From a bacterium HR33 (GTDB taxonomy: Bacteria; Gemmatimonadota; Gemmatimonadetes; Gemmatimonadales; GWC2-71-9): a stretch of DNA of 45,116 bases. How positions within the stretch are numbered: the first letter of the stretch is position 1; each line of letters begins with the position of its first letter. A model generated the notes under the pieces. The model saw nothing but the letters and a program-made list of their open reading frames with translations. It was not told the origin of the DNA and made no database searches. This document shows, in pieces, positions 3,234-39,193 of the stretch. A program made the translations under genes and the position numbers. Where the stretch lies: contig CAMDCH010000001.1 of the NCBI GenBank assembly GCA_945889655.1, forward strand, positions 1-45,116. The letters run 5' to 3'.

Positions 3234-4588
3234 CGCTCGTTCTCATCGTGGATGATGTCCCCGCCATGTCGGAGCAGTACGCCTACGACCTCAAGCGGCT
3301 CGGCGGATTCGATACGCTCACCGCTGCCGATGGCCGGCAAGCGCTCGAGGTGCTCGAGCGTGAGCCGGTGGACTGCATGATCCTGGACCTCGAGATGCCG
3401 GTACTGGACGGGTTCGGGGTTCTCCAGGCGCTCAAGCAGAAGAAGAGCGACCTGCCCGTGATCGTCTACACCGGCGCCGGCAACTTCGAGCGCTGCATCC
3501 AGGCGGTGCGGCTCGGCGCCTACGGGTTCATCGACAAGGCGGAGCCGGTCGAGCGGGTTGTCGCGGAGGTCGAGAAGGCCATCGAGCGCCGGCAGCTCGT
3601 GGCCGAGGTGTCGGGATTGAAGCGGAGGCTGGGACCGGATTCGCCGCTGGTTGGCGGCAGCTCGGCCATCCGGAAACTCCAGGAGTCCATCGCGCGCGTG
3701 GCGCCCATTCCCAGTCCGGTCCTGATCGTCGGCGAGAGCGGGACAGGCAAAGAGCTGGTCGCGCGCGAGCTTCACCGCCTGGGTCCCGGTGGTGCCAACG
3801 CGCCTTACGTCGCGGTCAACAGTGCGGCGTTACCGGAGCAACTGGTCGAGAGCGAGCTGTTCGGTCATGAGCGTGGGGCGTTCACCGGCGCGGCGCAGCT
3901 CAGGCAGGGGGCGTTCGAGGCGGCGGGGAAGGGCACCATCTTCCTGGACGAGATCGGCGAGCTCCCTCTTCCAGCTCAGGCCAAGCTCCTTCGCGTTCTT
4001 GAGGACCGGAAGCTCACCAGGCTCGGCGGCAACCGGACGGTGAACGTCGAGTCGCGTGTCGTTGCTGCTACTAATCGCGACCTCGATGCCGAGGTGGCGG
4101 AGAAGCGGTTCCGGCAGGATCTCCTGTTCAGGCTGAACGTCCACATCATCCACGTTCCGCCGCTCCGGGATCGCCTGGCGGATGTGGCCGAGCTGGTCGA
4201 GCGCTTTGTCGCTTCCATGTGCGTGCGCTTTGCCATGAAGCAGAAGACGGTCGAGCCAGGTGTGCTCAAGGCGCTGGCTGGCTATGACTGGAAGCGGAAT
4301 AACGTTCGCGAGCTGCGCAACGTGGTCGAGCGGATGATTATTGCTTCGGATGGCGATCTCATCACCGTCGCGGATATCCCAACCGAGATCCAGTTGGAGA
4401 GTCGGGTGGGTGGGCCGGAGGCGGGGACCTTCGCGCGGATGAAGGAAGACGCCGAGCGGGAGATCGTGAAGGCGGCGCTGGAGCGGAATGAGTGGCAGAT
4501 CACGAAGACCGCAAAGGAGCTGGGTCTCGCGGATCATGCGAGCTTGCACAAGATCATGAAGAGGTTGGGGCTGGCGAGGGCCAAGTAG
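3230..4588 (+). CDS. Sigma-54-dependent response regulator (NtrC family)
   Basis: 452 aa. REC domain (ILDLEMP), AAA+ sigma-54 interaction domain with Walker A GESGTGKE and a GAFTGA loop, and a C-terminal Fis-type HTH (ITKTAKELGL). Confidence 0.9.
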   Translation: MTLVLIVDDVPAMSEQYAYDLKRLGGFDTLTAADGRQALEVLEREPVDCMILDLEMPVLDGFGVLQALKQKKSDLPVIVYTGAGNFERCIQAVRLGAYGFIDKAEPVERVVAEVEKAIERRQLVAEVSGLKRRLGPDSPLVGGSSAIRKLQESIARVAPIPSPVLIVGESGTGKELVARELHRLGPGGANAPYVAVNSAALPEQLVESELFGHERGAFTGAAQLRQGAFEAAGKGTIFLDEIGELPLPAQAKLLRVLEDRKLTRLGGNRTVNVESRVVAATNRDLDAEVAEKRFRQDLLFRLNVHIIHVPPLRDRLADVAELVERFVASMCVRFAMKQKTVEPGVLKALAGYDWKRNNVRELRNVVERMIIASDGDLITVADIPTEIQLESRVGGPEAGTFARMKEDAEREIVKAALERNEWQITKTAKELGLADHASLHKIMKRLGLARAK

Positions 4589-4651: not shown

Positions 4652-6061
4652 TTACGGGACCAACTCGCGTATCACGCCATCGGCCTTGTTCAATAGGAAG
4701 ACGCGATTCTCGAGCCCGACTCCGAACCTGAGATCGGCGCGGCCGGCCGGTGAGCGTCCGGCCGCAGTCGCGGCGTCGCCCAGCACCTGAAGAAACCGCC
4801 TTGGCGCACCGCCGCCGCTCGCGAACAGAACCCGGCGGAAGTTGCCACCGCCCTGCGGAAGGCGGTCGGCATCGAATGCGAACATCTCGCCGCTGGGGAA
4901 ATCGGCGAACAGCACCTGGTTCCGCAGCGCGGTGAGCGGTCCGGCCCGGTAGACGATCACGCCGGTGACGGCCACGTTGCCGAGGAGCAAGGGATCGCGA
5001 TGATCGTATTCGACCACCGGGTACAGCACGTTCGTGTCGCCGCGAACGCCCTCGGTGCTCACGATGCCGCGCCCGGCCACGCGATAGCTGCCTTCCCAGA
5101 TGTTCCACCCCAGGTTGGCCCCGGACCGCACGAGTGAAATCTTCTCGACGGCGTTCTGGCCGATGTCGCTCATGAACATGTTGCCGTTGGCGGGATCCCA
5201 GCCGAACCGCTGGGGATTCCGCACGCCGGAGGCGTAGATCTCCTTCAGCGCGCCTGACGGTCCTCCCTGCGCCCACGGGTTCGTCGCCGGGATACCGTAC
5301 TTCCCATTGGGCGAGCTGGTGCCGAGGGGATCAATTCGAAGAATCTTGCCGAAGATCGAGGCGGCGTTCTGGGCCATGTTCAGCGGGTCGCCGCCGCTCC
5401 CGCCGTCCGCGACTCCAACGTAGAGGAGCCCGAAGTCGGGCTGTCCGGAACGCGCCAGCGGATTGAAGGCGAGCATGCCGCCGTTGTGGTTGGCGAACGG
5501 CTGCTCGATGCGGAGCAACTGCTTCGGCGCGTCACCGTCATAGGTGGGAGAGGCGGGACTCCTGGCGCGCCACTCGTGCAGCGCGGTGTGGTGCGTGTTG
5601 CCTCCGCCGCCGGGCCGGTAGTCGACCGGGACACTTGTGTCGACCACATCTGACCAGGTGTAGAAGCGACCGTAGCCCGGCGTGCCGGCCTGGGCGAACT
5701 GCGGGTGGAACGCGAAGCTCTGGACTCCGCGTTCGCGTCCCCCCGACTGCACCTGGACGTTCCACTGCGCGGCATTCACGTCGAGGTACGGCGTGACGGT
5801 GCGGCCGTCGTAGCCAACGCTGTAGACCGGGCCGCGCATGTCGTTTACGAACAGGCGGCGCGTGCCGGGCTCGTCCACGAGGAGCATCATGCGGGCGGGA
5901 ACGCCGGCGATGTCCGGGACGCGGGCAAAGTCCGCGACGTTGACCACGATGGCGCGCGCCGTGTCGATGGGTGGAAGCGGGTCGCCGGTTTGCTGCGCGC
6001 ACGCCGGTGCGGCGAGCACGCTCATGACGAGAAAGGCAGACAGGATCGCGGATGTTTTCAT
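4652..6061 (-). CDS. PQQ-dependent sugar dehydrogenase-like protein (GSDH/YliI family), secreted
   Basis: 469 aa with signal peptide [23 protein letters not shown]. Motifs [11 protein letters not shown] and [12 protein letters not shown] are typical of soluble glucose/sorbosone dehydrogenase beta-propellers. Confidence 0.8.
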
Positions 6062-6109
6062 GTGGCCGTCGGGGTTCGGGGTGGAGTAGGTGAAACGCTA
6101 CCCCGGGAT

Positions 6110-6391
6110 GTAGCTCGAGGGCAACGGGTGGGCGCGTCGCGGGCCGTAACCCAGGCGGTGTGGAGTAGCGGCCTGACCAAGCGCGCCACCTGTCACACCT
6201 TCCGGCATTCATTTGCGACCCACCTTCTCGAGAGCGGTGCGGACATCCGGACCGTCCAGGAGCTCCTGGGCCATCGGGACGTTTCCACCACCATGCTCTA
6301 TACCCATGTCCTGAATCGAGGCGGGCTCGGCGTTCGGAGTCCGGCGGACCGGAGTGACTTCCAGGACCTGCTTGCAGGCATGGCGGATTAG
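6110..6391 (+). pseudogene. intI: 5'-truncated integron integrase remnant (C-terminal ~85-90 aa only)
   Basis: The tail of ORF 5705..6391 reads [71 protein letters not shown]. This is the box II HxxR / catalytic-Tyr region of tyrosine recombinases plus the IntI-typical YTHVL..GG.GV.SP.D tail. The upstream part of the ORF is only antisense to the dehydrogenase gene, so the N-terminal ~230 aa of an integrase are absent. The left boundary is approximate. Confidence 0.75.
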
Positions 6392-6470
6392 GCTGCGAAG
6401 GCGTAGGATGAGCGTGTTAGGCTGCAAGACGGAACCACGACCACGCAGGTCCAATACTAGTTAGACGGCG
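6385..6470 (+). promoter_or_regulatory. attI-like region with three integrase-box-like repeats ending in a GTTAGAC crossover-type site
   Basis: ATTAGGCTGCGAAG (6388-), GTTAGGCTGCAAGA (6416-) and GTTAGACGGCGCC (6460-). The last has the same GTTAGRCGGC context that follows each attC R' site. Confidence 0.4.
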
Positions 6471-6485
6471 CCACCGGAGGCTAAC

Positions 6486-6716
6486 ATGTCTCAACCCGAG
6501 TCCCCGCTAGGACGTTCAATTGGCCTCGCCGGCGTCATTCGCTGGCTCATCGCCGTGGTGGCTGCGATCGCAATCGGTGCGGCATTCGCCGACGGCTACT
6601 ACGCTTTGGCCATCGCTGGCATCGTATTCCTTGTTGCTGCGGTGGCTCTTGGGTATCGGGCTTGGCGCGCTCGGCCGGCGGCCGGTGCTCCCCGCTCTCC
6701 GCAAAGGCCCTTGTGA
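6486..6716 (+). CDS. Cassette 1: small two-TM membrane protein, unknown function
   Basis: 76-aa ORF with two hydrophobic helices (VIRWLIAVVAAIAIGAAF; LAIAGIVFLVAAVALGY). It ends 11 nt before attC1. Confidence 0.5.
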   Translation: MSQPESPLGRSIGLAGVIRWLIAVVAAIAIGAAFADGYYALAIAGIVFLVAAVALGYRAWRARPAAGAPRSPQRPL

Positions 6717-6727
6717 ACCAAGGCGCC

Positions 6728-6872
6728 GTCTAACAAGTGCTTGAAGCTGGCGAGCGCTCGCAAGTAAGGAAGAATTGCATATGTGCCCGCTGCATTTGAT
6801 ACACGTTGCCGGCCTGCACCTCCTTGCGCCGGATGAGCCGGCGCTCGCAGCTTAAGCGCAGCTCGGTTAGAC
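6728..6872 (+). repeat. Integron attC site 1
   Basis: R'' GTCTAAC at 6728-6734 and R' GTTAGAC at 6866-6872. The left arm GCTTGAAGCTGGCGAGCGC pairs with the right arm GCGCTCGCAGCTTAAGC, leaving two unpaired G in the left arm. Homologous to the repeats at 7330, 8042, 8570 and 11356. Confidence 0.8.
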
Positions 6873-6905
6873 GGCAGCAACCTTCGTGGCTAGATTCGAA
6901 GTACG

Positions 6906-7109
6906 ATGATATTCCGCATTGAGATCGAGCGTGAGACGGACGGTCGCTGGCTGGCCGAGGTGCCGGACTTGGCTGGCGTCATGACGTACGGCGCCTCGCG
7001 CGATGAGGCTATGTCGCGCGTTCAGGCCCTGGCGCTGCGCGTCATTGCCGAGCGCCTCGAGCACGGCGAAGCTCAAGCCCAGCTGCAGATCACCTTCCAG
7101 GCTGCGTGA
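6906..7109 (+). CDS. hicB: Cassette 2: HicB-family antitoxin (UPF0150)
   Basis: 67 aa. MIFRIEIERETDGRWLAEVPDLAGVMTYGASRDEAMSRVQALALRVIAERLE matches the HicB N-terminal fold pattern (..DG.W.A.VPDL.G....G.T.EEA...). GTGA overlap with the next gene. Confidence 0.8.
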   Translation: MIFRIEIERETDGRWLAEVPDLAGVMTYGASRDEAMSRVQALALRVIAERLEHGEAQAQLQITFQAA

Positions 7110-7317
7110 GCACGTGGGGAGCCGCGCCGGCGCGTCGCGTGCTGGCTGCTCTCCTTCGTATCGGCTGGTCCCTCAAACGCTCATCCGGTTCCCACATGAC
7201 ACTCAGCCGGCCAGGCTGGGCCGACTATGCATTCGCCTTCCACGACTCCGAAGAGATCGGTCCCAAGATGCTTCCCGGATTGGAAAGCGGACCGGTCTTC
7301 AACCCGAAGATCTCTGA
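7106..7317 (+). pseudogene. hicA: Cassette 2: HicA/YcfA-family toxin with an apparent 1-nt deletion near the 3' end
   Basis: Frame 2 gives ..RRVLAALLRIGWSLKRSSGSHMTLSRPGWADYAFAFHDSEEIGPKML. The family-typical C-terminus (A)RIGKRTGLQPEDL* is in frame 1 and ends at 7317, just before attC2. The uninterrupted frame instead reads through attC2 to 7456. Confidence 0.65.
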
Positions 7318-7329
7318 TCAACGGCTGCC

Positions 7330-7473
7330 GTCTAACAAGCGCTTGAAGTTGCCGAGCGCGTTGTTTGGAACAATTGCATTCGTGCCCGCCGCCTTTGATC
7401 AGACGAGTCATCAATCCACCCTCCTTGCGCCGCAGCAGTCTACGCTCGCAGCTTAAGCGCAACTCCGTTAGCC
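7330..7473 (+). repeat. Integron attC site 2
   Basis: R'' GTCTAAC at 7330-7336 and R' GTTAGCC at 7467-7473. Same conserved internal sequence (..gaacaattgcattcgtgcccgccgc..ccctccttgcgccgc..gctcgcagcttaagcgcaactcc). Confidence 0.8.
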
Positions 7474-7524
7474 AGCAGCTCCCGTAGCTGCCGCTCCAAC
7501 CCGTTCCGCCGTAAGATTCTGTGA

Positions 7525-7761
7525 ATGCCCACGGTTCTCAGATCTGGCCCGTACCGCTTCTTCTTCTATTCGGCCGATCGGGAAGAACCACCCCATGTGC
7601 ATGTAGCCCGGGATGATTGCCATGCCAAGTTCTGGCTCGAGCCGGCGCGGTTGGACCAAAGCACCGGGTTCGGCCGGGCAGAGTTGAGAAAGCTTGAGGT
7701 CCTAGTGCATCAGAACGCAGGCCCGCTTCGAAAGGCGTGGGATGACTACTTCACCACATGA
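7525..7761 (+). CDS. Cassette 3: DUF4160 domain protein
   Basis: 78 aa. The pattern ..YRFFFYSADREEPPHVHVARDDCHAKFWLEP.. matches the DUF4160 core (F.FY..EH.PPH.HV......AKF.L). Confidence 0.8.
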   Translation: MPTVLRSGPYRFFFYSADREEPPHVHVARDDCHAKFWLEPARLDQSTGFGRAELRKLEVLVHQNAGPLRKAWDDYFTT

Positions 7762-8047
7762 TCTCCGACAGGCATTGGCCCAAGACGTCCGCGTTGTCGA
7801 TGAAACCCTCATCGTCGACCTAGTGGACGGCCGGACCCTGTCAGTGCCCGTTGCCTGGTACCCTCGCCTCGCCCACGGCACTGCTGCCGAGCAAGCACAG
7901 TGGGAGTTGATAGGCCGAGGCCATGGGATCCATTGGGTGCAGCTGGACGAGGATATCGGCGTCGACGATCTGCTGGCGGGGCACCGTTCGGGGGAGTCCC
8001 AAGCATCGTTGCAGCGCTGGCTCCAATCCCGGAAGGCTGCTGGCTAA
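7742..8047 (+). CDS. Cassette 3: DUF2442 domain protein
   Basis: 101 aa. ..LIVDLVDGRTLSVPVAWYPRL..A...Q..WELIGRGHGIHWVQLDEDIGVDDLL is the DUF2442 pattern. The TAA stop lies inside the R'' box of attC3. Confidence 0.8.
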   Translation: MTTSPHDLRQALAQDVRVVDETLIVDLVDGRTLSVPVAWYPRLAHGTAAEQAQWELIGRGHGIHWVQLDEDIGVDDLLAGHRSGESQASLQRWLQSRKAAG

Positions 8048-8185
8048 CAAGCGCTTGAAGCTGACGAGTGCTTTACCAGGAACAATTGCATTCGTGCCCG
8101 CCGCATTTGTTCAGACGGGGCACCAATCCACCCTCCTTGCGCCGCATGAGCCTGCGCTCGCAGCTTAAGCGCAACTCCGTTAGGC
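8042..8185 (+). repeat. Integron attC site 3
   Basis: R''-like GGCTAAC at 8042-8048 and R' GTTAGGC at 8179-8185. Conserved family sequence. Confidence 0.8.
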
Positions 8186-8192
8186 GGCAACA

Positions 8193-8564
8193 ATGCTCTC
8201 CAGGCCCACCCGCTGGCTGACCGTAGTTGGGGCGTTTTTCCTACTGAGCGCTTGCTACACCTGGCGTCCTGTGCCAATGACAGCCTTCGGACCTGAGTCC
8301 GTTGTCCGCGTCACTACGCAGGAAGGGGCCACGTTTCTCTTGCACGACAGCCGCCCGATTGGAGACAGTGTATGGGGCTGGATCGACACCGCACCCCGTC
8401 TTCGATCGGATACTGCCATGGCCCGGACAGCCCTACGGCAGTTGGAGGTTCAGCGCCTCCATGCCGGACGATCAATCGCTCTCGGAGCGGGAGTTGGGAT
8501 ACCCGTAGCCTTAGCCTTCGCTGCCCTCACGACCCGATGCTTGTTTGTCTGCGTCGAGTATTGA
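8193..8564 (+). CDS. Cassette 4: lipoprotein with a C-terminal TM segment, unknown function
   Basis: 123 aa. Lipobox FLLSAC and a C-terminal hydrophobic segment (IALGAGVGIPVALAFAAL). It starts 8 nt after attC3 and ends 5 nt before attC4. Confidence 0.55.
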   Translation: MLSRPTRWLTVVGAFFLLSACYTWRPVPMTAFGPESVVRVTTQEGATFLLHDSRPIGDSVWGWIDTAPRLRSDTAMARTALRQLEVQRLHAGRSIALGAGVGIPVALAFAALTTRCLFVCVEY

Positions 8565-8569
8565 GTGCC

Positions 8570-8713
8570 GCATAACAAGCGCTTGAAGCCGACAAGCGCG
8601 TTACCCGGAACAATTGCATTCGTGCCCGCCGCATTTGATCAGACGGCGCACCAATCCGCCCTCCTTGCGCCGCATGAGCCTGCGCTCGCAGCTTAAGCGC
8701 AACTCCGTTAGGC
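8570..8713 (+). repeat. Integron attC site 4
   Basis: R''-like GCATAAC at 8570-8576 and R' GTTAGGC at 8707-8713. Conserved family sequence. Confidence 0.8.
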
Positions 8714-8803
8714 GGCGCCACGACCGTAACCCACGCAGTCCGTTCATCGACGACGCGCGCGGGGCGCGCATTCTACGCCGCGGCAATCAGCACCGCCCTG
8801 GCT

Positions 8804-9120
8804 GTGGGTGCACTCCAGATGTACCGCGTCCGCGGAGGACTCTTGACCGACTACGGCGCCGACGTGTTCGGAACGGCGTGGCTGTACGCGATGACCCGTC
8901 AGGGCCGAACAATCATCCAGCGCGGTCGAACGACGGGCGCCACGAGCGCAGCGGCGATCGTCTTCGCGCTTTGTGCGCTCTCGAACTAGGTCAGCGGGTG
9001 CACCTCGTACCAGGCCACTTCGATCCGTACGATATAGTGGCGTATGGCGTAACCGTTGTCGCCTGCTGGGGCGTTGACCGACGTTTCCCCTTCGTTGAGT
9101 CGGCTAATTGCGTTGAGTGA
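8804..9120 (+). pseudogene. Cassette 5: possible DUF2809-like membrane protein split by a frameshift (tentative)
   Basis: Frame 2 (8804-8989) gives ..YGADVFGTAWLYAMT..AAAIVFALCAL. Frame 1 continues ..ALCALELGQRVHLVPGHFDPYDIVAYGVTVVACWGVDR to 9120. Joined, the two halves resemble DUF2809 proteins from memory; no alignment could be run. Confidence 0.3.
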
Positions 9121-9132
9121 GGCCAATCAGGA

Positions 9133-9849
9133 ATGATGCAAGCACAATCTGTTTTCCTCTTACTCTGTATCACCATGTATGGCTGCGCTCACGGTGAGCG
9201 GCCTGCCGCTAACTGCAAATGGCCCACAGAAACGCCAGCCACGCTGAATCTCCGAGACCGCACCGATCAGAGACACCTCAGGGATGATGCGCTAAGAGCA
9301 GAGGATCTCGCGATTCGGTACGCCGATTCCGTCAATGCCCCGCATTCCGGACATTTCGAGGGATTCCTGGTCTACAATCAAACAAGAGACAGCTGCATGA
9401 CCGCCCTCTTCGACGCGGTTGCGCGGAACCACGCGGTACCTCCCGACGATGTTCGGACATCTCTTACGCGTCGTCCCGTCAGCGCGGATTTAGCCATAAT
9501 GCTCTCTTTCGCCATCTGCTATGCCTTCCTGGCCTACAGTATGAGTGGGCAATTGGCCCGTAACTTTCCATTCGAGGAAGGGTATGCCGCCCCTGTCGTG
9601 GCAACCATCGTGGCTTCAGTCGTGATCAGCTTGTCCGGGGTGTTGGTCGGTGAGTGGTATTCACTCGCCGCCGAGAACATTCGCGTTGGCAGTGGTCACC
9701 TGAGTTATCGAATCGGGCGCATCCCTTGGAATCAGCACCGGCCGGGGCTTTTCTTGATTGGTGTTGTTCTCTTTTGGCTGGTTGCGGCCATTCGCTATCG
9801 GCAGAGAAGCGAGCACATGGGTCGGCCCTCGCCACTTCGCGGACGTTGA
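9133..9849 (+). CDS. Hypothetical lipoprotein/membrane protein (visibly lower GC than surroundings)
   Basis: 238 aa. Signal with lipobox-like MYGCAHG and about 3 C-terminal TM helices. No family recognised. Confidence 0.5.
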   Translation: MMQAQSVFLLLCITMYGCAHGERPAANCKWPTETPATLNLRDRTDQRHLRDDALRAEDLAIRYADSVNAPHSGHFEGFLVYNQTRDSCMTALFDAVARNHAVPPDDVRTSLTRRPVSADLAIMLSFAICYAFLAYSMSGQLARNFPFEEGYAAPVVATIVASVVISLSGVLVGEWYSLAAENIRVGSGHLSYRIGRIPWNQHRPGLFLIGVVLFWLVAAIRYRQRSEHMGRPSPLRGR

Positions 9850-9857
9850 GGGCTGAG

Positions 9858-10283
9858 CGGTTAGGGATATAGCTGACAGATCACTCGTGGGACATCGCTA
9901 ACACCTGGTGTGACGGTGCTGACGGCCTTGGTGGTCCACGATCTTCCCTGGCGTTCGTCGAACCAGCCGAGCGTAACCATCCCGAAGGACACCGTCCAGA
10001 TCCCGTCGTCGATCTCTTCGAAGCCGATGTATTCCTCCGCCAGCAAGTGACTGACCGGGACGCGATGGGCGTGCCAGCGAATCCCGCCGTTGCGACTGAC
10101 GCGCCGGACTTCGAAGTGCGGCGGATACTCGAGGAGCGGCAGCCGGCGCGGATAGAGCCGCGGGGACGGGGAATAGAGGCGAATCGGCGGCCGCTGGCCG
10201 AGCGCTTCATGCGGTCGCTCGTAGTTGTAGTCAAACCGAAAGGCATCGAAGCGGCGCTGTTGGGCGCGGAGCGTCGCCTCGGC
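9858..10283 (-). mobile_element. IS481-family (rve/DDE) transposase, C-terminal fragment only
   Basis: The minus-strand translation reads DSAEATLRAQQRRFDAFRFDYNYERPHEALGQRPPIRLYSPSPRLYPRRLPLLEYPPHFEVRRVSRNGGIRWHAHRVPVSHLLAEEYIGFEEIDDGIWTVSFGMVTLGWFDER.. This is the typical C-terminal third of IS481-type transposases. The frame is closed by a TAG exactly at the junction with the partial attC (10284-10286), and no N-terminal part is present. Confidence 0.75.
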
Positions 10284-10285
10284 CG

Positions 10286-10395
10286 AGTCGCGCTACCTGG
10301 AACAACTACATTCGTGCCCGCCGCACCTGATTGGACGGAGTACCAATTGCGCCGCACCAGCCTGCGCTCGCAGTTTAAGCGCAGCTCCGTTAGGC
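10286..10395 (+). repeat. Integron attC site 5, partial (R''/L'' left arm missing)
   Basis: Homology to the attC family starts at ..cctggaacaactacattcgtgcccgccgca.. and runs to R' GTTAGGC at 10389-10395. The left ~35 bp are replaced by the IS fragment. Confidence 0.7.
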
Positions 10396-10482
10396 GGCTG
10401 ATACGCGCTTTCCGCTACAACGATTTCCGCACGCATGGTGGCGGGCGGATAACGTGAAAGCAAAACAGAAGGAAATAGAATC

Positions 10483-11001
10483 ATGAAAATACAAATTTCA
10501 GTCGTTAAGTCGCTCGCTGTAGCAGTGACTCTAACAGCCCTTCTCGCCGCGACTTCCGTGCAAGCTGCTGCGCAGGTCGAGAAGAGTCTGTACGAACGGC
10601 TTGGCGGCGTCTTCGCGATCGCCGCGGTAGTTGACCACTTTAGCGACGCGGTGGTGAAAAACCCGATCGTCGGAAAGAATTCGACGAACCCAGCCCTCAG
10701 GAAATGGCACAGGGAGAACTTGAGCAGGCTGCCGGGCCTCAAGTTCATGCGAACCCTGTGGGTCTGTCAGGTCACGGGCGGGCCATTGAAATTCTCGCCA
10801 ACAAAACCGGGAAGGACTGAATTGGGTCTTGAGGAGGCGCATCGCGATCTCAAAATCTCGCCAGCAGAATTTGACGAGGTCGCGGCCGAGCTAAGTCGCT
10901 CGCTTGACTTCGCCAAAGTGCCTGCGCGTGAGAAGGGAGAAGTCCTCTCCGCTTTCGCAGCGCATAAGGACGAGGTAACGGCTGGCTACAAGGCGAAGTG
11001 A
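10483..11001 (+). CDS. Cassette 6: group-1 truncated hemoglobin (Bac_globin) with an N-terminal signal peptide
   Basis: 172 aa. Signal MKIQISVVKSLAVAVTLTALLAATSVQAAAQ, then SLYERLGGVFAIAAVVDHFSDAVVKNP.. and ..LEEAHRDLKISPAEFDEVAAEL, which give the trHb start motif and proximal-His region. Confidence 0.8.
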   Translation: MKIQISVVKSLAVAVTLTALLAATSVQAAAQVEKSLYERLGGVFAIAAVVDHFSDAVVKNPIVGKNSTNPALRKWHRENLSRLPGLKFMRTLWVCQVTGGPLKFSPTKPGRTELGLEEAHRDLKISPAEFDEVAAELSRSLDFAKVPAREKGEVLSAFAAHKDEVTAGYKAK

Positions 11002-11085
11002 TTACCGGGCACGCGCGTTTCAAGTCGCTGATTCGTGCCACTGGGGTCAGCGAGCGCTCGGATCCAACCCGGGCAGGAAGACCAG

Positions 11086-11343
11086 ATGCCAAAAACGCGA
11101 GCCGAGCGAACAAAAGGGCGTGGTATGCCGCCGACTAAGCGGGCGTTGAAGGGGGCGCAGAAGCTCGGCCGCCAGGATCCCGAGCGCGGCGTTACGAGCC
11201 GCGCTCGCAAGCGAAAACAGGGCGCGGAGGCGGTCCCCGACCCTCGGTACGGCGGCCGTCCGGGGCGAAAGCATTCGAAATGGGGTCCACCGAAAGAAAA
11301 GCTGAGTCCCAGGCAGAAGAAGGCCGCGCGCGCGAAGAACTAG
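11086..11343 (+). CDS. Cassette 6: small highly basic protein, unknown function
   Basis: ATG at 11086 preceded by aggaag. 85 aa rich in K/R (MPKTRAERTKGRG..RQKKAARAKN). It ends 12 nt before attC6. No family recognised, and it could be non-coding. Confidence 0.35.
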   Translation: MPKTRAERTKGRGMPPTKRALKGAQKLGRQDPERGVTSRARKRKQGAEAVPDPRYGGRPGRKHSKWGPPKEKLSPRQKKAARAKN

Positions 11344-11355
11344 CGGCACCGCGCG

Positions 11356-11505
11356 GCCTAACATGCGCTTGAAGCTGGCGAGCGCTCCCAAGTAAGGAAC
11401 TATTGCGTATGAGCCCGCCGCATTTGATCAGACGGCGCGGCACTCAACCCTCCTTGCGCCGCAACAGCCTGCGCTCGCAGCTTAGAGCGCAAATCCGGTA
11501 TGCCG
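11356..11505 (+). repeat. Integron attC site 6 with a degenerate R' box
   Basis: R'' GCCTAAC at 11356-11362 and conserved arms (gcgcttgaagctggcgagcgc / gcgctcgcagcttagagcgc). The R' position reads GGTATGC instead of GTTRRRY. Confidence 0.65.
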
Positions 11506-11587
11506 ACGGAGGAGGACCGCGGCGAGCATCGTGCCGCGTCGCGCGACTTAGACAACGCCTGACCCGTCCGCCGCGAGTCGCCCAGAA

Positions 11588-12076
11588 CTACTTCATCGCG
11601 ACCACGTGCTCCACGAACTGATCGACGGCGATCTCGGTGCCCTGGTAAAAGCCCGACGTCTTGTTTGTCTCGAGATCCGCTTCATTCCGGTGCAGCGCCG
11701 TGAAGACGTAGCGGGTGCCGGTTCCCACGGTTTCCATCGTAACGATGGCCGTGATCGGAATGTCGTCAAAGACAGCCGGGCGGTAGCCGGGGAACAACAT
11801 GGAGGTCCAGACAAGTCGCTCCATCGGAATAACTTCCAGGAAACAGCCGAGGTTGGGAACCTCCTGACCGCCTGCCACCGCGATGTTGATGCTGAAGATG
11901 CCGCCCGGTCGCAAATCCATTTCGGTTCGGGCCACACGCCCCCAGGACCTGGGCATGTACCACTCTTTCAGATGCTCCGGTTTCGTCAACGCTTCCCAGA
12001 CAAGCCTCGTGGGAGCGTCGATGAACCGTTCGATACCGAAATCCAGCTTCGGATTGATCGTGAATTGCTTGCTCAT
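11588..12076 (-). CDS. SRPBCC/AHSA1-family protein (reverse-oriented cassette cargo)
   Basis: Start MSKQFTI at 12076 (ATGA overlap with arsR). ..FIDAPTRLVWEALTKPEHLKEWYMP..W.....EMDLRPGGIF... is the AHSA1/SRPBCC pattern. Confidence 0.8.
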   Translation of the reverse strand: MSKQFTINPKLDFGIERFIDAPTRLVWEALTKPEHLKEWYMPRSWGRVARTEMDLRPGGIFSINIAVAGGQEVPNLGCFLEVIPMERLVWTSMLFPGYRPAVFDDIPITAIVTMETVGTGTRYVFTALHRNEADLETNKTSGFYQGTEIAVDQFVEHVVAMK

Positions 12077-12414
12077 GACCCTGATTCCTTCTCCTTGAGC
12101 TGTTTGACGTATTGGTCGAACCGGTCCAGTCGAGCTTCCCACAACTGACGACGCGCGGTCAGCCAGTCTTCAACGACCTTGAACCGTTCGGGCACGATCT
12201 CATACGTCCGCACACGCCCGTGCTTTTTCGACCTCACCAGTCGGCTCTGTTCGAGCACCGCCAGGTGCTGCACAAACGAGGGGAGTTGCATGTCGAATGG
12301 TGCCGCCAGCTCGCTGACTGTGGCTGGTCCGACAGACAGTTGCTCCAGGACCTTCCGCCGAGTCGGGTTGGACAAGGCATAGAAAACACCGTCAGCGACT
12401 GCGGATTGAACCAT
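12073..12414 (-). CDS. ArsR/SmtB-family transcriptional regulator
   Basis: 113 aa. VFYALSNPTRRKVLEQLSVGPATVSELAAPFDMQLPSFVQHLAVLEQSRLVRSKKHGRVRTYEI is a winged-HTH ArsR signature. This is the common arsR-SRPBCC gene pair. Confidence 0.85.
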   Translation of the reverse strand: MVQSAVADGVFYALSNPTRRKVLEQLSVGPATVSELAAPFDMQLPSFVQHLAVLEQSRLVRSKKHGRVRTYEIVPERFKVVEDWLTARRQLWEARLDRFDQYVKQLKEKESGS

Positions 12415-12505
12415 TTCAACACCAGTCGATTGGTTGGGGTGCCCGATCTGACGGAGAGACTATATCGCCGGTCAATACTAAGGTCAAGACATAAGTATTG
12501 TCGCT

Positions 12506-12557
12506 TCCTTGCGCTGGCGCAGCCTGCGCTCGCAGCTTAAGCGCAACTCCGTCAGGC
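12506..12557 (+). repeat. attC right-half relic (site 7)
   Basis: ccttgcgctggcgcagcctgcgctcgcagcttaagcgcaactccGTCAGGC matches the right arm of the family. The R' is degenerate (GTCAGGC) and no left arm is found upstream. Confidence 0.55.
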
Positions 12558-12566
12558 CGCAGGTCA

Positions 12567-12851
12567 ATGCTATTCGTCAAAGCGTTGCGAGAGCGGGTCC
12601 GCAGTGGAGAGATCACCTGTAGCGTTCGGCTTTGGCAGCGGCCGCACGTCAGGGTCGGTGGCCGATACTCCCTGGCACCAGGAGAGATTGTAGTGACGTC
12701 TCTTCTTGAAATGTCCCTGGACGACGTCACCCCTGCACTCGCCCGCCGTTCGGGTTTCTCGGGAGTCGTGGAACTCCTCAAGATCGCCAGGCATGGACGC
12801 GGGCGGCGCGTGTTTCTTGTCGAATTCCGCTACGTGCGAAGAAAACGCTGA
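12567..12851 (+). CDS. Small ASCH/PUA-like protein (tentative)
   Basis: ATG at 12567, 10 nt after the attC relic. 94 aa, MLFVKALRERVRSGEITCSVRLWQRPHVRVGGRY.. loosely resembles ASCH-domain proteins. Confidence 0.4.
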   Translation: MLFVKALRERVRSGEITCSVRLWQRPHVRVGGRYSLAPGEIVVTSLLEMSLDDVTPALARRSGFSGVVELLKIARHGRGRRVFLVEFRYVRRKR

Positions 12852-12884
12852 TGGCTGCGTTGCTCGGCAGCCATCAGTGTTTGT
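12848..12884. terminator. Hairpin between convergent genes (bidirectional terminator-like)
   Basis: Perfect 11-bp stem ctgatggctgc / gcagccatcag with an 8-nt loop, followed by tgtttgt. Confidence 0.5.
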
Positions 12885-12890
12885 CCGCGG

Positions 12891-14171
12891 CTATGGTGCC
12901 ACGTGAGCGAACACGGCGATACAACCCTTGCCCTTCACGTTGAATTGCGCGCACGCCGTGTTATCGGTCGTGGGGTCGGCGATCTGCGCGGCGTTGACCT
13001 GCACGACGGCGAATATGTGATTGTTCTTTTCAAACGCCGTGGGGTTCGTGGCCCCTGGAGCGGGCACATTCTGCAGCCACGTGTTGGTCACCGCATCGAT
13101 AACGCCGAGTGACGTGACGCCAGTGACGGCGTCCGCTCCCGTCACGTAGAAGCGCTTGTCGCCGGGATTGTACCAGGTCTCATTGCCTCCCCCGACCTGG
13201 GTAATGACGGTCAGGACCTTGCCGGTTCTCGCATCCATGATGACCGGCCTGCCGCATCCCGGTATGATCATGTGCCCGTCGGGTCCCAGCGCCGGATCGT
13301 TGATGCCCAGCTGGACGGTGCCGGTGAGCACCCCGCAATCGATCACCCACTTGTCTTCGATGGCCCGCGTCACCGGGTTGATGACCGCGACGTACTGCGG
13401 GCTGACGACGACGCCCCCGACAATCCTTCCGGTCACCGCGGAAAGCAGGCGGCGCGACTCGGGGTTCCACAGCGGCGCTTCCTGGTTGCCGGCACCCTCA
13501 AACGTGACCGTGCCCTGGATCGTATAGGGAGGCACGGCGGAAATGAACGTCGCATAGGGATCGAGGGCCGCATGGGTGCCGCCGACCGCGAGGGGCGCAG
13601 GCGACTGGACGAAGACGAGCTTGTGCTCGGGATCGTAGGTCATTTCGTTGGTGCGTCCACAGTAGCGAGTGGTGGCCGTTCCGCCGTCACACGCCGGGAT
13701 GCTGACGTCGATGGATGCGAGAATCTGCATGGTGTTGTTGTCCACCACGCGCACCATGCTATTGCCGTCCGAGACGAACGACGTGTTGTTCGGGGTGAAC
13801 GTGATGCTGCTGGGTCCGTTGCCGTTGGTGGTGGGGGTGCCGCCCCCGGCCGTCGCGTTCCCCGCGAAGCCGGTCACCCGGCCCAGGTAGGTGTTGTTCT
13901 CGGCATCGATGATGTCCACCCCGGCGTTCGATACGTCCGTCAGATAGTATCGCATGCTGCCGAGGTAGGTGCCGTGCGAGACCTGCGTGGCGTCGACCCA
14001 GGACTTGGTACCGCTGCCGATAGGGTTGCCCGGAACCGTGATCACGGCGATGAGGGCGACCGGGTCGGTCACCTTGGCTGGTGCGTCCCCGTTCTCGAAG
14101 ACCATGCAACCCGGAGAGAGCGCCGTGATGAAGATGAACAGGAAGGCGAGAAATCGCTGAGTAGGCTTCAT
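12891..14171 (-). CDS. Beta-propeller-repeat lipoprotein (YncE-like), unknown function
   Basis: 426 aa. Signal plus lipobox ITALSPGC. Repetitive beta-strand-rich sequence with recurring ..Y.TD....V.VID.. segments. Confidence 0.55.
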   Translation of the reverse strand: MKPTQRFLAFLFIFITALSPGCMVFENGDAPAKVTDPVALIAVITVPGNPIGSGTKSWVDATQVSHGTYLGSMRYYLTDVSNAGVDIIDAENNTYLGRVTGFAGNATAGGGTPTTNGNGPSSITFTPNNTSFVSDGNSMVRVVDNNTMQILASIDVSIPACDGGTATTRYCGRTNEMTYDPEHKLVFVQSPAPLAVGGTHAALDPYATFISAVPPYTIQGTVTFEGAGNQEAPLWNPESRRLLSAVTGRIVGGVVVSPQYVAVINPVTRAIEDKWVIDCGVLTGTVQLGINDPALGPDGHMIIPGCGRPVIMDARTGKVLTVITQVGGGNETWYNPGDKRFYVTGADAVTGVTSLGVIDAVTNTWLQNVPAPGATNPTAFEKNNHIFAVVQVNAAQIADPTTDNTACAQFNVKGKGCIAVFAHVAP

Positions 14172-14230
14172 GACGAACCTCCTGCGAAGGCCGATACCGC
14201 TGTGCCAACGAATCTCATACCAGGCTCAAC

Positions 14231-14974
14231 TCAGATCCCGGGGACGATGGGCACCCCGAGTCCGGGAATCTTGAAGGTGTAGTGGAGGCCGAGGCCCACC
14301 ACGAGCGTCTCACGCTTCTGAAGGGTGACGATCCCCGACGTCTTCCTGCTGAACATTGACCAATCCAGGGCGGCGTGCAGGCCGAACCCCAGGGGGAGGC
14401 CCAGGTTCACCCCGCCGGAGAGTCCGTACCCCGTCTGCGTAGCCGAATTGTCGCCGGAGGAAACCGCGTTGAGCTGTACCCGGGCTGCCGCCCAGGGCGA
14501 CAACGACACTCCCGGGGTCGGCACGTTTACCGCCGCGCCAACGCCCAGCGGCACGCTGATCGTCGTGGTCGAAAACGGCCCGCTGACCTGCTTCAGGTAA
14601 CCCACGCCGGCCTGAACGCTCACCGAGACTGGAACGAGGGGGCCCCCGAAGACCTTGAGCGCGGCATTGCCCATGAACTGTTTTTCCTTGTTCAGCGTGA
14701 TGTACTTGGGATCGTAGGTTGCGGCGCCCACACCGACGGTCAACATCGGCAGGCCGAGGGATACTCGCCCGCCAAACGCCGTGGGTTTGGTGGTGGTGTT
14801 GATGCCGTCGAGCCTGGTGCGGGCCGCCTGTCCGAAGTCACCCGCGATGGTGAGTCCGATGCCCCCCTTCGGGGAGAAATACACCGGAAGATTCTGCAGC
14901 TGCGCCGCTGCCGGGTGGGCAGCGAAGATCACTCCCAGCCCCGCCAGAAGGACACGGGCTGCAAGGTGCTTCAT
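14231..14974 (-). CDS. Outer-membrane beta-barrel protein (porin-like)
   Basis: Start MKHLAARVLLAGLGVIFAAHPAAAQ at 14974. The rest has an alternating amphipathic beta-strand pattern rich in G/A/S/T/Y. Confidence 0.55.
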   Translation of the reverse strand: MKHLAARVLLAGLGVIFAAHPAAAQLQNLPVYFSPKGGIGLTIAGDFGQAARTRLDGINTTTKPTAFGGRVSLGLPMLTVGVGAATYDPKYITLNKEKQFMGNAALKVFGGPLVPVSVSVQAGVGYLKQVSGPFSTTTISVPLGVGAAVNVPTPGVSLSPWAAARVQLNAVSSGDNSATQTGYGLSGGVNLGLPLGFGLHAALDWSMFSRKTSGIVTLQKRETLVVGLGLHYTFKIPGLGVPIVPGI

Positions 14975-15104
14975 GTTGACCCTCCTTTCACGTGAGATTC
15001 GCGAAACCAGGGCGCGCATTCAACATGCGACTCGAGGCGATGCCGCGCCAGTCCTTGGGCCACAGATATGACCGATGGCCCTTTGCTGCTATTATCGGCG
15101 TCGA

Positions 15105-15617
15105 ATGAGAATCATCGGCGGGACGTTCGCGGGACGGGACCTCGTGTCTCCGAATGACTTCCGCGTTCGGCCGACCGCGGAGCTGGTACGCGCCGCCATG
15201 CTGGAGGGTCTCGCGCCGCTCGTGAAGGGTGCCCGTATCCTCGACCTCTTTGCGGGCACCGGCGCGCTCGGACTCGAGGCGCTGTCACGCGGCGCTGCGA
15301 CCGCGGATTTTGTCGAGACGAGAGGTTCGAGTCTTCACGCGCTCAAGGCGAATATCGCGCTGCTGCGCATGCGGAAACGGACACGCGTGTTCAAGAAGGA
15401 CGCCCTCCCCTTCGCCGCCGCGCTCGAGGCAAACAGCTACGACATCGCCTTCGTCGATCCGCCCTACGAGTCCCGGATGCTGGACCGGGTGATCGAGGAG
15501 TGGCTCGTGACCCGATTCGCGCCTGTCCTGGTCGCTGAGCATGCGAGGACGCACGCGTTGCCACCTGGAGCGAGGCGACGGCACTTCGGCGATACGACGG
15601 TGAGTGTCTACAAGTGA
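15105..15617 (+). CDS. rsmD: 16S rRNA (guanine966-N2)-methyltransferase RsmD
   Basis: MRIIGGTFAGRDL..RPT...R.A....L....GARILDLFAGTGALGLEALSRGA..ADFVE ... FVDPPY are the RsmD family motifs. Confidence 0.85.
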   Translation: MRIIGGTFAGRDLVSPNDFRVRPTAELVRAAMLEGLAPLVKGARILDLFAGTGALGLEALSRGAATADFVETRGSSLHALKANIALLRMRKRTRVFKKDALPFAAALEANSYDIAFVDPPYESRMLDRVIEEWLVTRFAPVLVAEHARTHALPPGARRRHFGDTTVSVYK

Positions 15618-15620
15618 TCA

Positions 15621-15650
15621 TTCGTCGAACCAGCCGAGCGTAACCATCCC
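15621..15650 (+). repeat. Exact 30-bp copy of an internal piece of the IS481-like transposase fragment
   Basis: ttcgtcgaaccagccgagcgtaaccatccc is identical to 9954-9983 (minus-strand coding GMVTLGWFDE). It lies immediately after the rsmD stop. Confidence 0.85.
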
Positions 15651-15651
15651 T

Positions 15652-15969
15652 ATGCTCCAGGCTCTTCTCCCCCTCCCATTGCTTTTCGCTGCGTTGATCG
15701 TCGGCACTGATCGACGCATCATCCGAGAGCTACGACGCGCGGGTGCTACCGCGAAGCACGCCTCCATCGCGCTTCGTTCGTCTTTCATTCGCCAATATCG
15801 CCTTCGCCGCCTCTCCGCAGTCGGCGCCCTTGGGGTCGTGGAGGGGAATCGCTATTACCTGGACGAAGCTGGGTGGGCCCACTATCGGCGGGTGCGCCGG
15901 ATCCGGGTGCTGGCAGTTGCTGTTGTGTTGACACTTGGCGGTGCAGCGTGGTGGCTCCGCTTCCCGTAA
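15652..15969 (+). CDS. Hypothetical membrane protein
   Basis: ATG at 15652. TM helices at the N- and C-termini (LLPLPLLFAALIVG; VLAVAVVLTLGGAAWW). No family recognised. Confidence 0.35.
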   Translation: MLQALLPLPLLFAALIVGTDRRIIRELRRAGATAKHASIALRSSFIRQYRLRRLSAVGALGVVEGNRYYLDEAGWAHYRRVRRIRVLAVAVVLTLGGAAWWLRFP

Positions 15970-15977
15970 AAAAGCGT

Positions 15978-16071
15978 CTTCGTGCCCGCCCCTTGATCGA
16001 GCGGTGCACCAATCCACCCTCCTTGCGCCGCACTAGCCTGCGCTCGCAGCTTAAGCGCAACTCCGTTGGGC
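15978..16071 (+). repeat. Solo attC-like site (right two-thirds), 3.4 kb beyond the array
   Basis: cttcgtgcccgcc..caccaatccaccctccttgcgccgcactagcctgcgctcgcagcttaagcgcaactccGTTGGGC. The right arm is near-identical to the array attCs and the R' fits GTTRRRY. No R''/L'' left arm. Confidence 0.65.
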
Positions 16072-16089
16072 CGCACAAACGAGGACTAT

Positions 16090-16482
16090 GTGAACGATCA
16101 GCTCAAGCACTACTCGGACAAGCTCGCATACGAAATCGACTCATGGGACCTCCAGGTGGCTCTCGATGCGGGCGAGACTATCACCGTCATCGACGCGCGG
16201 TCGCCGGACTCCTTTGCGCGTGAGCACATCCCCGGCGCCATTAGCGTTCCGCATCGGACCATGATGGCCGACACCACGCGCCACATCGACAAGGGTGCTC
16301 TTGTTGTCACGTACTGCGACGGCATTGGCTGTAACGGGTCCACCAAGGCGGCGCTCAACATGCTGAAGCTCGGGTTCCGCGTAAAAGAGCTGGCCGGCGG
16401 CCTCGATTGGTGGAAACGAGATGGACATAAGACGCATGGCAGCGTGGGGTCTGACGCAGCGGTGTCTTGCGGCTGCAAGTAG
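16090..16482 (+). CDS. Rhodanese-domain sulfurtransferase
   Basis: GTG at 16090 after gagga. ITVIDARSPDSFAREHIPGAISVP... and an active-site loop context YCDGIGCNGS. Confidence 0.8.
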   Translation: MNDQLKHYSDKLAYEIDSWDLQVALDAGETITVIDARSPDSFAREHIPGAISVPHRTMMADTTRHIDKGALVVTYCDGIGCNGSTKAALNMLKLGFRVKELAGGLDWWKRDGHKTHGSVGSDAAVSCGCK

Positions 16483-27916: not shown

Positions 27917-28043
27917 GTAAGAAGTGAGAAGTAAGAAGTAAGAAGTGAGAAGTAAGAAATGAGAAGGCGCTGTGGGTGGGATCGGATCGCCACCACAGCG
28001 CCTTTTTGTTTTCTTCTCACTTCTCACTTCTCACTTCTTACTT
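27916..28043. repeat. Tandem-heptamer-armed palindrome H1 ((AGTRAGA)n, GC hairpin, (TCTYACT)n) filling the stop-to-stop gap
   Basis: The left arm is agtaaga agtgaga agtaaga agtaaga agtgaga agtaaga aatgaga. The core is ggcgctgtgggtgg-gatcggatc-gccaccacagcgcc. The right arm is tcttctcac ttctcac ttctcac ttcttac. It spans exactly from the TPR gene stop (27914-27916) to the moxR stop (28045-28047). Confidence 0.85.
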
Positions 28044-28044
28044 G

Positions 28045-29064
<1,020 letters not shown>

Positions 29065-32537: not shown

Positions 32538-32657
32538 GAAGTAAGAAGTGAGAAGTGAGAAGTGAGAAGTAACAGACAAGGTCGCTGTAGCTGAGACGCC
32601 ATGGTTCAGCACAGCGACTTTGCTTTTTCTTCTCACTTCTCACTTCTTACTTCTCAC
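32538..32657. repeat. Tandem-heptamer-armed palindrome H2
   Basis: The left arm is gaagtaaga agtgaga agtgaga agtgaga agtaaca. The core hairpin is gtcgctgtagctga..tcagcacagcgac. The right arm is ttcttctcac ttctcac ttcttac ttctcac. It starts at the first base after the atpH stop. Confidence 0.85.
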
Positions 32658-32673
32658 TGAACAGGGGGCTCGA

Positions 32674-34971: not shown

Positions 34972-35021
34972 GGTGCGAGGTGCGAGATGCGAGATGCGAG
35001 GTGCGAGGTGCGAGGTGCGTA
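34966..35021 (+). repeat. Tandem heptamer array (GTGCGAG/ATGCGAG)x6-7, starting inside the ccdA stop codon
   Basis: gtgcgag gtgcgag atgcgag atgcgag gtgcgag gtgcgag gtgcgta read directly from the sequence. There is no complementary arm nearby. Confidence 0.85.
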
Positions 35022-35053
35022 GACTACAGAACCGGGAACAAGGTGGAGATACT

Positions 35054-39186: not shown

Positions 39187-39193
39187 AAAGACA

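Follow-up and report, generated by a model that had tools for sequence, protein, structure and literature searches.

The stretch of DNA analyzed here, referred to as the window, is the entire 45,116-nt contig CAMDCH010000001.1 from a Gemmatimonadota bacterium (bacterium HR33, assembly GCA_945889655.1). Between about 6.1 and 16.1 kb, it carries the 3' end of an integron-integrase gene (intI), an attI-like region, and a series of long repeats that separate mostly small open reading frames (ORFs). Directly upstream of the intI remnant, and divergent from it, lies a PQQ-dehydrogenase-like gene. The coordinates of all features are collected in Table 1. The region is very probably a chromosomal integron of the inverted-integrase type, now in decay after losing its own integrase. 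The original prediction, made from the letters of the sequence, had described a decayed chromosomal integron, and this reading is supported by an attC covariance model, by the clustering of the repeats, and by the IntI-type character of the integrase fragment.

The repeats were located by a repeat search and aligned with MAFFT. Five full copies of about 144–150 bp had been proposed, and all five were recovered with lengths of 144–148 nt and a mean column identity of 86%. Of the partial copies, which retain the right arm only, the two proposed earlier are present, but that list was incomplete; a third (~15975–16071) had been missed, and it extends the relics 3.5 kb past position 12557. A 20-nt core, GCGCTCGCAGCTTAAGCGCA, matches seven times with at most three mismatches, on the plus strand in every case, against an expectation of 0.01; the match at 16040 falls within the third partial copy. 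The left-arm motif is restricted to the five full copies, and therefore all three relics have lost the left arm. All eight copies are on the plus strand within a 9.4-kb tract (6.7–16.1 kb) adjoining the intI remnant. Scans with the core, the left-arm motif, and the covariance model found no copy in the remaining ~35 kb of the window.

The boxes at the ends of the repeats agree with their earlier description, including the two degenerate ones. In the full sites, in order, the R'' boxes read GTCTAAC, GTCTAAC, GGCTAAC, GCATAAC, and GCCTAAC. The R' boxes read GTTAGAC, GTTAGCC, GTTAGGC, and GTTAGGC, with degenerate boxes at 11497 (GGTATGC) and 12551 (GTCAGGC). The AAC and GTT triplets are retained in four full sites and lost in the site named attC6. 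The strict RYYYAAC...GTTRRRY consensus is satisfied at both ends by one site only. As had been noted, the stop codons of the small ORFs fall near or inside the left box (measured distances of 11, 12, −6, 5, and 12 nt). A scan of the window against Rfam gave no match for the repeats, a tRNA scan found nothing, and no part of the array matched known plasmids. One ENA and two Logan contigs from other samples reproduce the locus at 99.99–100% identity across the junctions that they cover, among them the join of the integrase fragment to the upstream gene. Since three independent assemblies agree, the locus is not an assembly artifact.

Table 1. Features of the cassette array and its upstream flank (positions in the window; bits refer to the lineage covariance model)
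Feature	Position	Strand	Description
PQQ-dehydrogenase-like gene	4652–6061	−	Divergent from the intI remnant; start ~77 nt upstream
intI 3' remnant	6139–6391	+	Last 83 codons and TAG; box II (HxxR...Y) and IntI-type tail kept; N-terminal ~250 residues deleted
attI-like region	6392–6466	+	Core AGGTCCAATACTAGTTAG at 6447–6464; GTTAGAC at 6460–6466; predicted crossover G6460/T6461
Cassette 1	6461–6866	+	406 bp; ORF 6486–6716, 76 aa, hydrophobic, no family match
attC1	6728–6872	+	145 nt, intact; 78.8 bits, E 5e-21
Cassette 2	6867–7467	+	601 bp; hicB-like 6906–7109, hicA 7106–7317 (Pfam)
attC2	7330–7473	+	144 nt, intact; 67.8 bits
Cassette 3	7468–8179	+	712 bp; DUF4160 7525–7761, DUF2442 7742–8047; stop codon within R''
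attC3	8042–8185	+	144 nt, intact; 70.3 bits
Cassette 4	8180–8707	+	528 bp; ORF 8193–8564, 123 aa, lipoprotein-like N-terminus, no family match
attC4	8570–8713	+	144 nt, intact; 58.5 bits
Compound segment 5	8708–10389	+	Low-GC ORF 9133–9849 (238-aa membrane protein), then insertion sequence remnant
IS481-family transposase, C-terminal ~130 aa	9861–10292	−	Translation; tblastn match annotated as IS481 family transposase
attC5 relic	10289–10395	+	Left arm (R''–L'') gone; R' GTTAGGC at 10389–10395; 10.5 bits
Cassette 6	10390–11497	+	Secreted bacterial-like globin (Bac_globin) 10483–11001; basic ORF 11035–11343
attC6	11356–11503	+	148 nt; folds; 1-nt insertion in L'; R' GGTATGC; 62 bits
Segment 7	11498–12551	−	AHSA1/SRPBCC gene 11588–12142; ArsR-family gene 12073–12414; sigma-70-like promoter match 12487–12459
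attC7 relic	12504–12557	+	Last ~54 nt (L'–R') only; R' GTCAGGC
Segment 8	12552–16065	.	ASCH-like ORF; 426-aa and outer-membrane-protein-like genes (−); RsmD-like methyltransferase 15105–15617
attC8 relic	15975–16071	+	Right ~97 nt; R' GTTGGGC
Possible trailing cassette	16066–16482	+	Rhodanese gene, start ~21 nt past attC8 relic

The recombinase fragment had been called the C-terminal third of an IntI-type tyrosine recombinase. It is in fact the C-terminal quarter (83 of ~331 residues), while its assignment to the IntI type holds. The remnant scores 124 bits against the TIGR02249 profile (positions 243–314 of 315), compared with 85 bits for XerD and 83 bits for XerC. Among solved structures, the best match is VchIntIA (PDB 2a3v, residues 248–319 of 320), with an E value of 2e-25 versus 1e-13 for XerD. 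The closest full-length relatives, two metagenomic loci denoted L026 and L027, are 81–83% identical to the remnant, and the homology begins at window positions 6137–6140. The start at ~6139 corresponds to residue 255 of the 337-residue open frame of L026 (the called protein has 331 aa), leaving 83 residues. The L026 protein itself reaches 443 bits on TIGR02249 (cutoff 265) with full-length coverage, which makes the clade a genuine IntI group. No stop codon interrupts the remnant, which lacks box I, the catalytic lysine, and the IntI-specific insertion. It is not the functional intI of a complete integron, since its 124 bits lie below the cutoff of 265, although TIGR02249 is its best-scoring family. 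Comparison with the full-length relatives revealed no further IntI pieces anywhere in the 45-kb contig.

The region following the remnant contains a predicted attI site. A core, AGGTCCAATACNNGTTAG, is found 55–68 nt after the intI stop codon in the window and in four other loci (L026, L027, L017, and L022), and the motif occurs once in the window. It ends as GCAGGTCCAATACTA-GTTAGAC in the window, GGAGGTCCAATACTA-GTTAGAG in L017, GCAGGTCCAATACAC-GTTAGGC in L022, and GCAGGTCCAATACAA-GTTAG in both L026 and L027. A GTTRRRY crossover box is thereby placed beside intI, at the same distance from its stop as in the four other loci. The R'' box of cassette 1 is the exact complement of the GTTAGAC box of attI.

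The plus strand carries the remnant, the attI region, all attC sites, and most ORFs, an orientation of intI on which the original prediction had made no comment. The same-strand arrangement is also present with full-length intI in L026, L036, L058, L063, and L070, and where the flanking sequence of relatives suffices, their attC-like sites are for the most part found past the 3' end of intI (nine in L070 and five each in L082 and L063). Because the attI core is conserved after the intI stop both here and in the relatives, the same-strand order of intI, attI, and cassettes is native to the clade, of the "inverted integrase" type, and not the result of a rearrangement. A few loci have the sites upstream of intI, which is the classical divergent layout; one of them, the close IntI relative L080 (ERZ1066123 NODE-476), has 9–10 attC-like sites there. 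Similar integrases thus come with either layout, which agrees with the inverted group having been reported as paraphyletic (PMC4889954).

Several lines of evidence indicate that the repeats are attC sites. When the top-strand left arm, TAAC-AA-GCGCTT-G-AAGCTG-N-CGAGCGC, is paired with the right arm, GCGCTCG-CAGCTT-AAGCGC-AACTCC-GTTA, two bases stay unpaired, both of them on the left arm. This corresponds to an attC architecture with a 7-bp R box and helices H1–H3, in which positions 16 and 23 of the top-strand AAC arm bulge out. Covariation was assessed for 22 sites from the window, a Gemmatimonadales metagenome-assembled genome (MAG) array (L005), and an 11-site Acidobacteriota MAG array (L001). 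The alignment comprised the two arms only, and the structure was picked after viewing the sequences, which somewhat favors it. Across these sites, 95% of the paired cells are complementary, versus 23–43% when the partner is slid by 1–3 columns. Double compensatory changes occur in 12 of the 19 pairs, and none of 500 shuffles reaches the observed covariation score. Folding of the bottom strands had been proposed as a check; RNAalifold, applied independently to 24 full-length bottom strands from seven loci, recovered the same R box, the three helices, and the bulges on the 3' arm, and no conserved central structure was found in this set.

An attC covariance model had been suggested as a check on the repeats, and a lineage-specific model served as a substitute. 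It was built from 19 attC sites downstream of full-length intI in L026, L036, L058, L063, and L070, and contained no sequence from the window. With filters off, it detected the five full sites on the plus strand at 58.5–78.8 bits (E values of 5e-21 to 4e-15), whereas on the minus strand they scored at most 15 bits. The three relics, at 7.7–10.5 bits, are at noise level, and the model gave no other significant match in the 45 kb. The ends of the cassettes are also informative. IntI crosses over at G/TT, so the final six R' bases belong to the next cassette. When the 5' end of each cassette is compared with its own R'', the mismatches number 0, 0, 0, 1, and 0, while R' and R'' inside one physical site differ by 0, 1, 1, 1, and 2 mismatches. 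This complementarity of each cassette to its own end is as expected for a crossover at G/TT.

Certain observations weigh against this interpretation, and the first group concerns the canonical attC site. In the description of Nivina et al. (PMC5027507), the bottom strand carries extrahelical bases at positions 16 and 23/24, on the arm facing the AAC triplet, and 6 bp of stem separate the two. G is the usual base at position 16 and T is conserved at the distal one; each arm has an unpaired central spacer of 5–6 nt, and the length is 57–141 bp. The window sites share the bulges at 16 and 23, the 6-bp stem between them, and the correct arm; the R''/R' core boxes pair over 7 bp in the five full sites and in the RNAalifold consensus, and L'' pairs with L' with extrahelical bases on one arm. 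The identities of these bases differ. All window sites have C, not G, at position 16 of the bottom strand, as do 71 of 85 two-bulge sites from 35 clade loci (G on the top strand). Position 23 is variable, with a top-strand A, equivalent to the canonical bottom-strand T, in 53% of the 85 sites. The spacer comprises 2 nt on the R'' arm versus 5–6 nt on the R' arm, its remaining positions being taken up by an additional 6-bp helix (H1) that shows compensatory changes. A canonical site has a variable terminal structure with no conserved fold, and the lack of a common central structure across loci would agree with this, but the lengths of 144–148 nt slightly exceed the canonical range. These deviations are variants at the level of the clade and leave the identification of the sites untouched.

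The remaining counterpoints are of a different nature. Single-site minimum-free-energy folds are not all better than shuffled sequences (z = −3.8, 0.0, −1.4, −1.3, and −2.3), and one site favors an alternative fold. The IntI-specific insertion falls in the deleted part, and the IntI identity of the window fragment rests on 72–83 residues. A scan for the cassette promoter (Pc), limited to sigma-70-type promoters, found no match near attI (5900–6500). No cassette gain or loss was seen between assemblies; all are 99.99–100% identical and hence uninformative on turnover. Finally, the DNA at 12.56–15.97 kb, with large minus-strand genes and a near-threshold RsmD, is atypical for cassettes.

The marks of decay are spread along the array. 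The first ~250 codons of intI are deleted, and the remainder is joined to the unrelated PQQ-dehydrogenase-like gene. The hicA gene of cassette 2 carries a 1-nt frameshift near 7272–7280; with the frames joined, HicA covers profile positions 2–58 of 58 at 37.2 bits, versus positions 2–49 at 30.8 bits unrepaired. The IS481 transposase fragment terminates exactly at the start of the attC5 relic, so the left arm of attC5 was removed by insertion of the element and a subsequent deletion. In the alignment, the three relics break at three different repeat positions, indicating independent deletions and not one site-specific process. In attC6, R' is mutated to GGTATGC, so that the GTT crossover triplet is lost, though the site still folds.

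A broken intI was also observed in L017 (5423–6258; also in L018), where a frameshift and an internal deletion of ~50 codons divide the gene into ORFs of 197 and 85 aa. The GKGxKDR region is lost together with some of the IntI-specific insertion, and the attI core, followed by cassettes including a ParE toxin, is still present past the broken gene. Here intI has decayed by a second route, independent of the one in the window. As the list of short-fragment hits shows, decayed intI genes are common in this clade.

By analogy with the known mechanism, a full-length IntI of ~331 aa would bind the folded bottom (minus) strand of each ~145-nt attC. Strand exchange would take place at G/TT of R' with attI (GTTAGAC, 6460) or with another attC, and such exchange would insert, excise, and reorder promoterless cassettes downstream of attI. 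The earlier statement that the array can no longer be rearranged in cis is right, as only 83 C-terminal IntI residues remain. Insertion of IS481 with a subsequent deletion took one attC left arm, and separate deletions took two others. Everything distal to attC4 is probably locked in its present order. The attI region and attC1–4 appear structurally complete, and cassettes 1–4 could be substrates for an IntI supplied in trans.

In terms of known elements, the locus is a cluster of attC sites lacking integron-integrase (CALIN, as defined in IntegronFinder; PMC4889954) with an intI pseudogene. Several attC sites lie within 4 kb of one another (five are model-positive), and no intI passes detection. 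As in other CALINs, of which 38% have a neighboring insertion sequence (IS), an IS remnant lies within the array, and an origin from a complete integron by loss of the integrase is plausible (PMC4889954). Unlike typical CALINs, the window keeps a recognizable intI remnant and an intact-looking attI; a detectable intI pseudogene was reported near only 15 of 279 CALINs, and that call required 50% profile coverage (PMC4889954). The remnant covers PF00589 positions 110–169 of 172, or ~35%, and a standard pipeline would therefore probably miss it.

It is conceivable that the repeats belong to a dispersed palindrome of the repetitive extragenic palindrome (REP) or miniature inverted-repeat transposable element (MITE) kind that lies near a tyrosine-recombinase fragment by chance. 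They are long (145 nt), 86% alike, and imperfectly palindromic, and their individual fold energies are not all significant. Yet all copies are co-oriented in a single tract beside the intI remnant, their boundaries coincide with ORF stops, and the complementarity of the cassette ends holds. The bulges are confined to one arm, at the canonical positions 16 and 23, and the same repeat family follows full-length intI in five other loci. A genome-wide attC pattern scan covering 185,579 species genomes returned 16 matches, approximately the number expected by chance; real related sites were found only in L001, L005, and L016, that is, in other cassette arrays. Taken together, the covariation, the independent covariance model, and the logic of the cassette ends rule out a REP or MITE, to which we assign a very small chance, and the original prediction was correct in preferring an attC family.

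Given that the repeats are read as attC sites, the more serious alternative is that the array is a CALIN still rearranged by an intact IntI elsewhere in the same genome, with cassettes 1–4 mobile. We consider this possible but unlikely. It would agree with the structural integrity and good lineage-model scores of attI and attC1–4, with the absence of internal stops in the remnant, which is consistent with a fairly recent truncation, and with the report that about half of the surveyed CALINs are in genomes with an IntI elsewhere (PMC4889954). Conversely, IntI sequence is found nowhere else in the 45-kb contig, the cassettes are the same in independent assemblies from several samples, and four independent decay events, the dead R' box, and the frameshifted hicA suggest relaxed maintenance. 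Alternatively, the 3' end of intI could have been kept by selection, as the carrier of the cassette promoter or of part of attI, or as the gene of an 87-aa regulatory peptide containing box II. The fragment is free of internal stops, transcription through the 3' end of intI would enter the cassettes in the same-strand layout, and there are other loci in which nothing but the 3' portion is left, such as L022 (87 aa, with different neighboring genes) and L063 (a 70-aa open frame). These loci were found using the 3' end as the query, however, which introduces an ascertainment bias, and the list of short hits reflects ranking and contig edges. In addition, the sigma-70-type scan found no promoter-like site within 5900–6500, and recombination is beyond a fragment that lacks box I, the catalytic lysine, and the N-terminal DNA-binding domain. 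Selection on the 3' end is thus improbable, and decay of an inverted-type chromosomal integron remains the preferred explanation.

A conserved gene for an 85-aa "mini-integrase" was considered and rejected as an artifact of ranking and contig edges. The 120 best protein matches to the fragment are 71–163 aa each, with 85 aa recurring and some on long contigs. The contigs of L019–L021 begin 32 nt upstream of the fragment, intI in L017/L018 is frameshifted and internally deleted, and L022 is an unrelated truncation in a different neighborhood. In an independent survey of 80 metagenome loci, the relatives were mostly open frames of 330–390 aa.

Comparison with characterized chromosomal integrons places the locus in a familiar context. 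The inverted arrangement of the integron-integrase is known from Treponema, and Cury et al. have discussed it (PMC3607928, PMC4889954). The chromosomal integron of Treponema denticola shares the same-strand layout, whereas its host lineage is different, its attC sites are much shorter than the 144–148 nt found here, and its intI is intact. Similar to the Vibrio cholerae superintegron and its repeats (VCR), the window has long attC sites that closely resemble each other within the array, toxin-antitoxin (TA) cassettes among orphan genes, and a folded bottom strand with extrahelical bases (PMC5027507, PMC13108822). In contrast, the Vibrio array has more than 100 sites, versus 5–8 here, and a divergent, intact intI. 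The VCR has three extrahelical bases (G16, T20, and T24), versus two here (C16 and N23), and the spacer is partly paired in the window. A large sedentary chromosomal integron is defined by more than 19 attC sites or by presence in all genomes of a species; with five full sites and three relics, the array falls short of that number. In the chromosomal integrons of Xanthomonas, arrays persist after inactivation of intI; these belong to a different phylum and have a different attC family and a divergent intI orientation.

The original estimate of about eight cassettes is only partly borne out. Four cassettes (1–4) are well formed and one (cassette 6) has a dead R' box; these five have leaders of 13–92 nt and stop-to-R'' distances of −6 to 12 nt. 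Segments 5, 7, and 8 do not conform to gene cassettes; they are compound, and at least one of them (12.56–15.97 kb) is perhaps not cassette DNA. The cargo described earlier, HicB/HicA and DUF4160/DUF2442, was found by profile search, along with Bac_globin, AHSA1, and ArsR. The less GC-rich stretches were also confirmed, with 54–58% GC at 9.0–9.9 kb and 51–53% at 10.3–10.6 kb, compared with ~65% nearby.

Segment 8 may be chromosomal backbone rather than cassette DNA, in which case the relic at 15975 would be the remnant of a split array. Its RsmD-like protein scores 115.6 bits on TIGR00095, against an equivalog cutoff of 117.5. In the Gemmatimonadales MAG CAWJMT010000035.1 (L005, 2374–6699), a 4.3-kb gap between attC sites holds three larger minus-strand genes and resembles segment 8. 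Large inserts that are not cassette-like may be a recurring feature of such arrays. Neither a relaxed box scan nor the covariance model found an attC after the rhodanese gene, and the distal end of the array is therefore undefined.

Integrons have already been reported from Gemmatimonadota and Acidobacteriota (PMC8618304). The window attC sites are 85% identical to those of the Gemmatimonadales MAG array, and this identity, together with the GC content, makes a host in Gemmatimonadota probable. The Acidobacteriota array (L001, 283–6307, minus strand of MAG contig CAVOYO010000021.1) contains 11 sites of 72–108 nt with the arm plan of the window (xAAC-AAG-6 bp-G-AAGCTG-N-stem), and its site at 3930–4007 has arms nearly identical to those of the window. 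This likeness suggests either cassette exchange or attC convergence between phyla. Among the integrase relatives, a 131-aa IntI C-terminal fragment on a 528-nt ENA contig (P0002) contains the box II segment (ELLGHKDVSTTMIYTHVLN...GVRSP) twice in tandem, which reflects either a local duplication or a misassembly.

A broader proposal, which we regard as speculative and rather doubtful, is that the locus is part of an undescribed, soil-wide, same-strand integron lineage in Gemmatimonadota, Acidobacteriota, and relatives. Its recognition rules would depart from the textbook in having an almost invariant C16, a largely paired spacer (2 versus 5–6 nt), an attI core of its own, AGGTCCAATACNNGTTAG, and attC sites as long as 165 nt. 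Had the integrase of the clade co-evolved to read C16, the result would be an orthogonal IntI/attC pair of natural origin, with which the encoding of strand choice could be tested. The clade-level traits, namely, the same-strand layout, the attI core, and the C at position 16, are more useful than the locus itself, and they could inform both an attC model made for this lineage in soil metagenomes and experiments on integrase–attC co-evolution.

The locus nevertheless offers a well-documented case of the death of a chromosomal integron. Its attI and proximal attC sites outlast the integrase, which is truncated; left arms of attC sites are lost, including by IS-mediated deletion, and toxin-antitoxin cassettes decay. 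Furthermore, a criterion of more than 50% coverage would miss a remnant of this size, implying that some "integrase-less" CALINs may be decayed complete integrons.

Outside the array, the window contains three very stable intergenic hairpins (27900–28047, 32525–32665, and 39185–39300). Their arms consist of tandem heptamers, (GAAGTGA/GAAGTAA)n, and the complement, and the apex forms a GC-rich mini-hairpin (GGCGCTGTGG...CCACAGCGCC). The minimum free energies of the RNA folds are −79, −82, and −61 kcal/mol (z = −10.7, −10.2, and −11.3). The hairpins lie between unrelated housekeeping genes (TPR/MoxR, 3-hydroxyisobutyrate-dehydrogenase-like, and others), have no match in Rfam, and share their motif with none of the 106 fetched loci. 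A REP-like element and a family of bidirectional terminators are both possible identities.

A different tandem heptamer, (GGTGCGA)n, forms intergenic tracts at 34965–35032, 38101–38168, and 39091–39158. One of these is located directly upstream of the start of a MacB-like gene (35668–38097, minus strand), and another is ~30 nt from a heptamer hairpin. The MacB-like gene is one of two MacB/FtsX-type ABC permease paralogues of ~810 aa, the other being at 19974–22409 (minus strand); they lie 15.7 kb apart and share stretches of 77% DNA identity.

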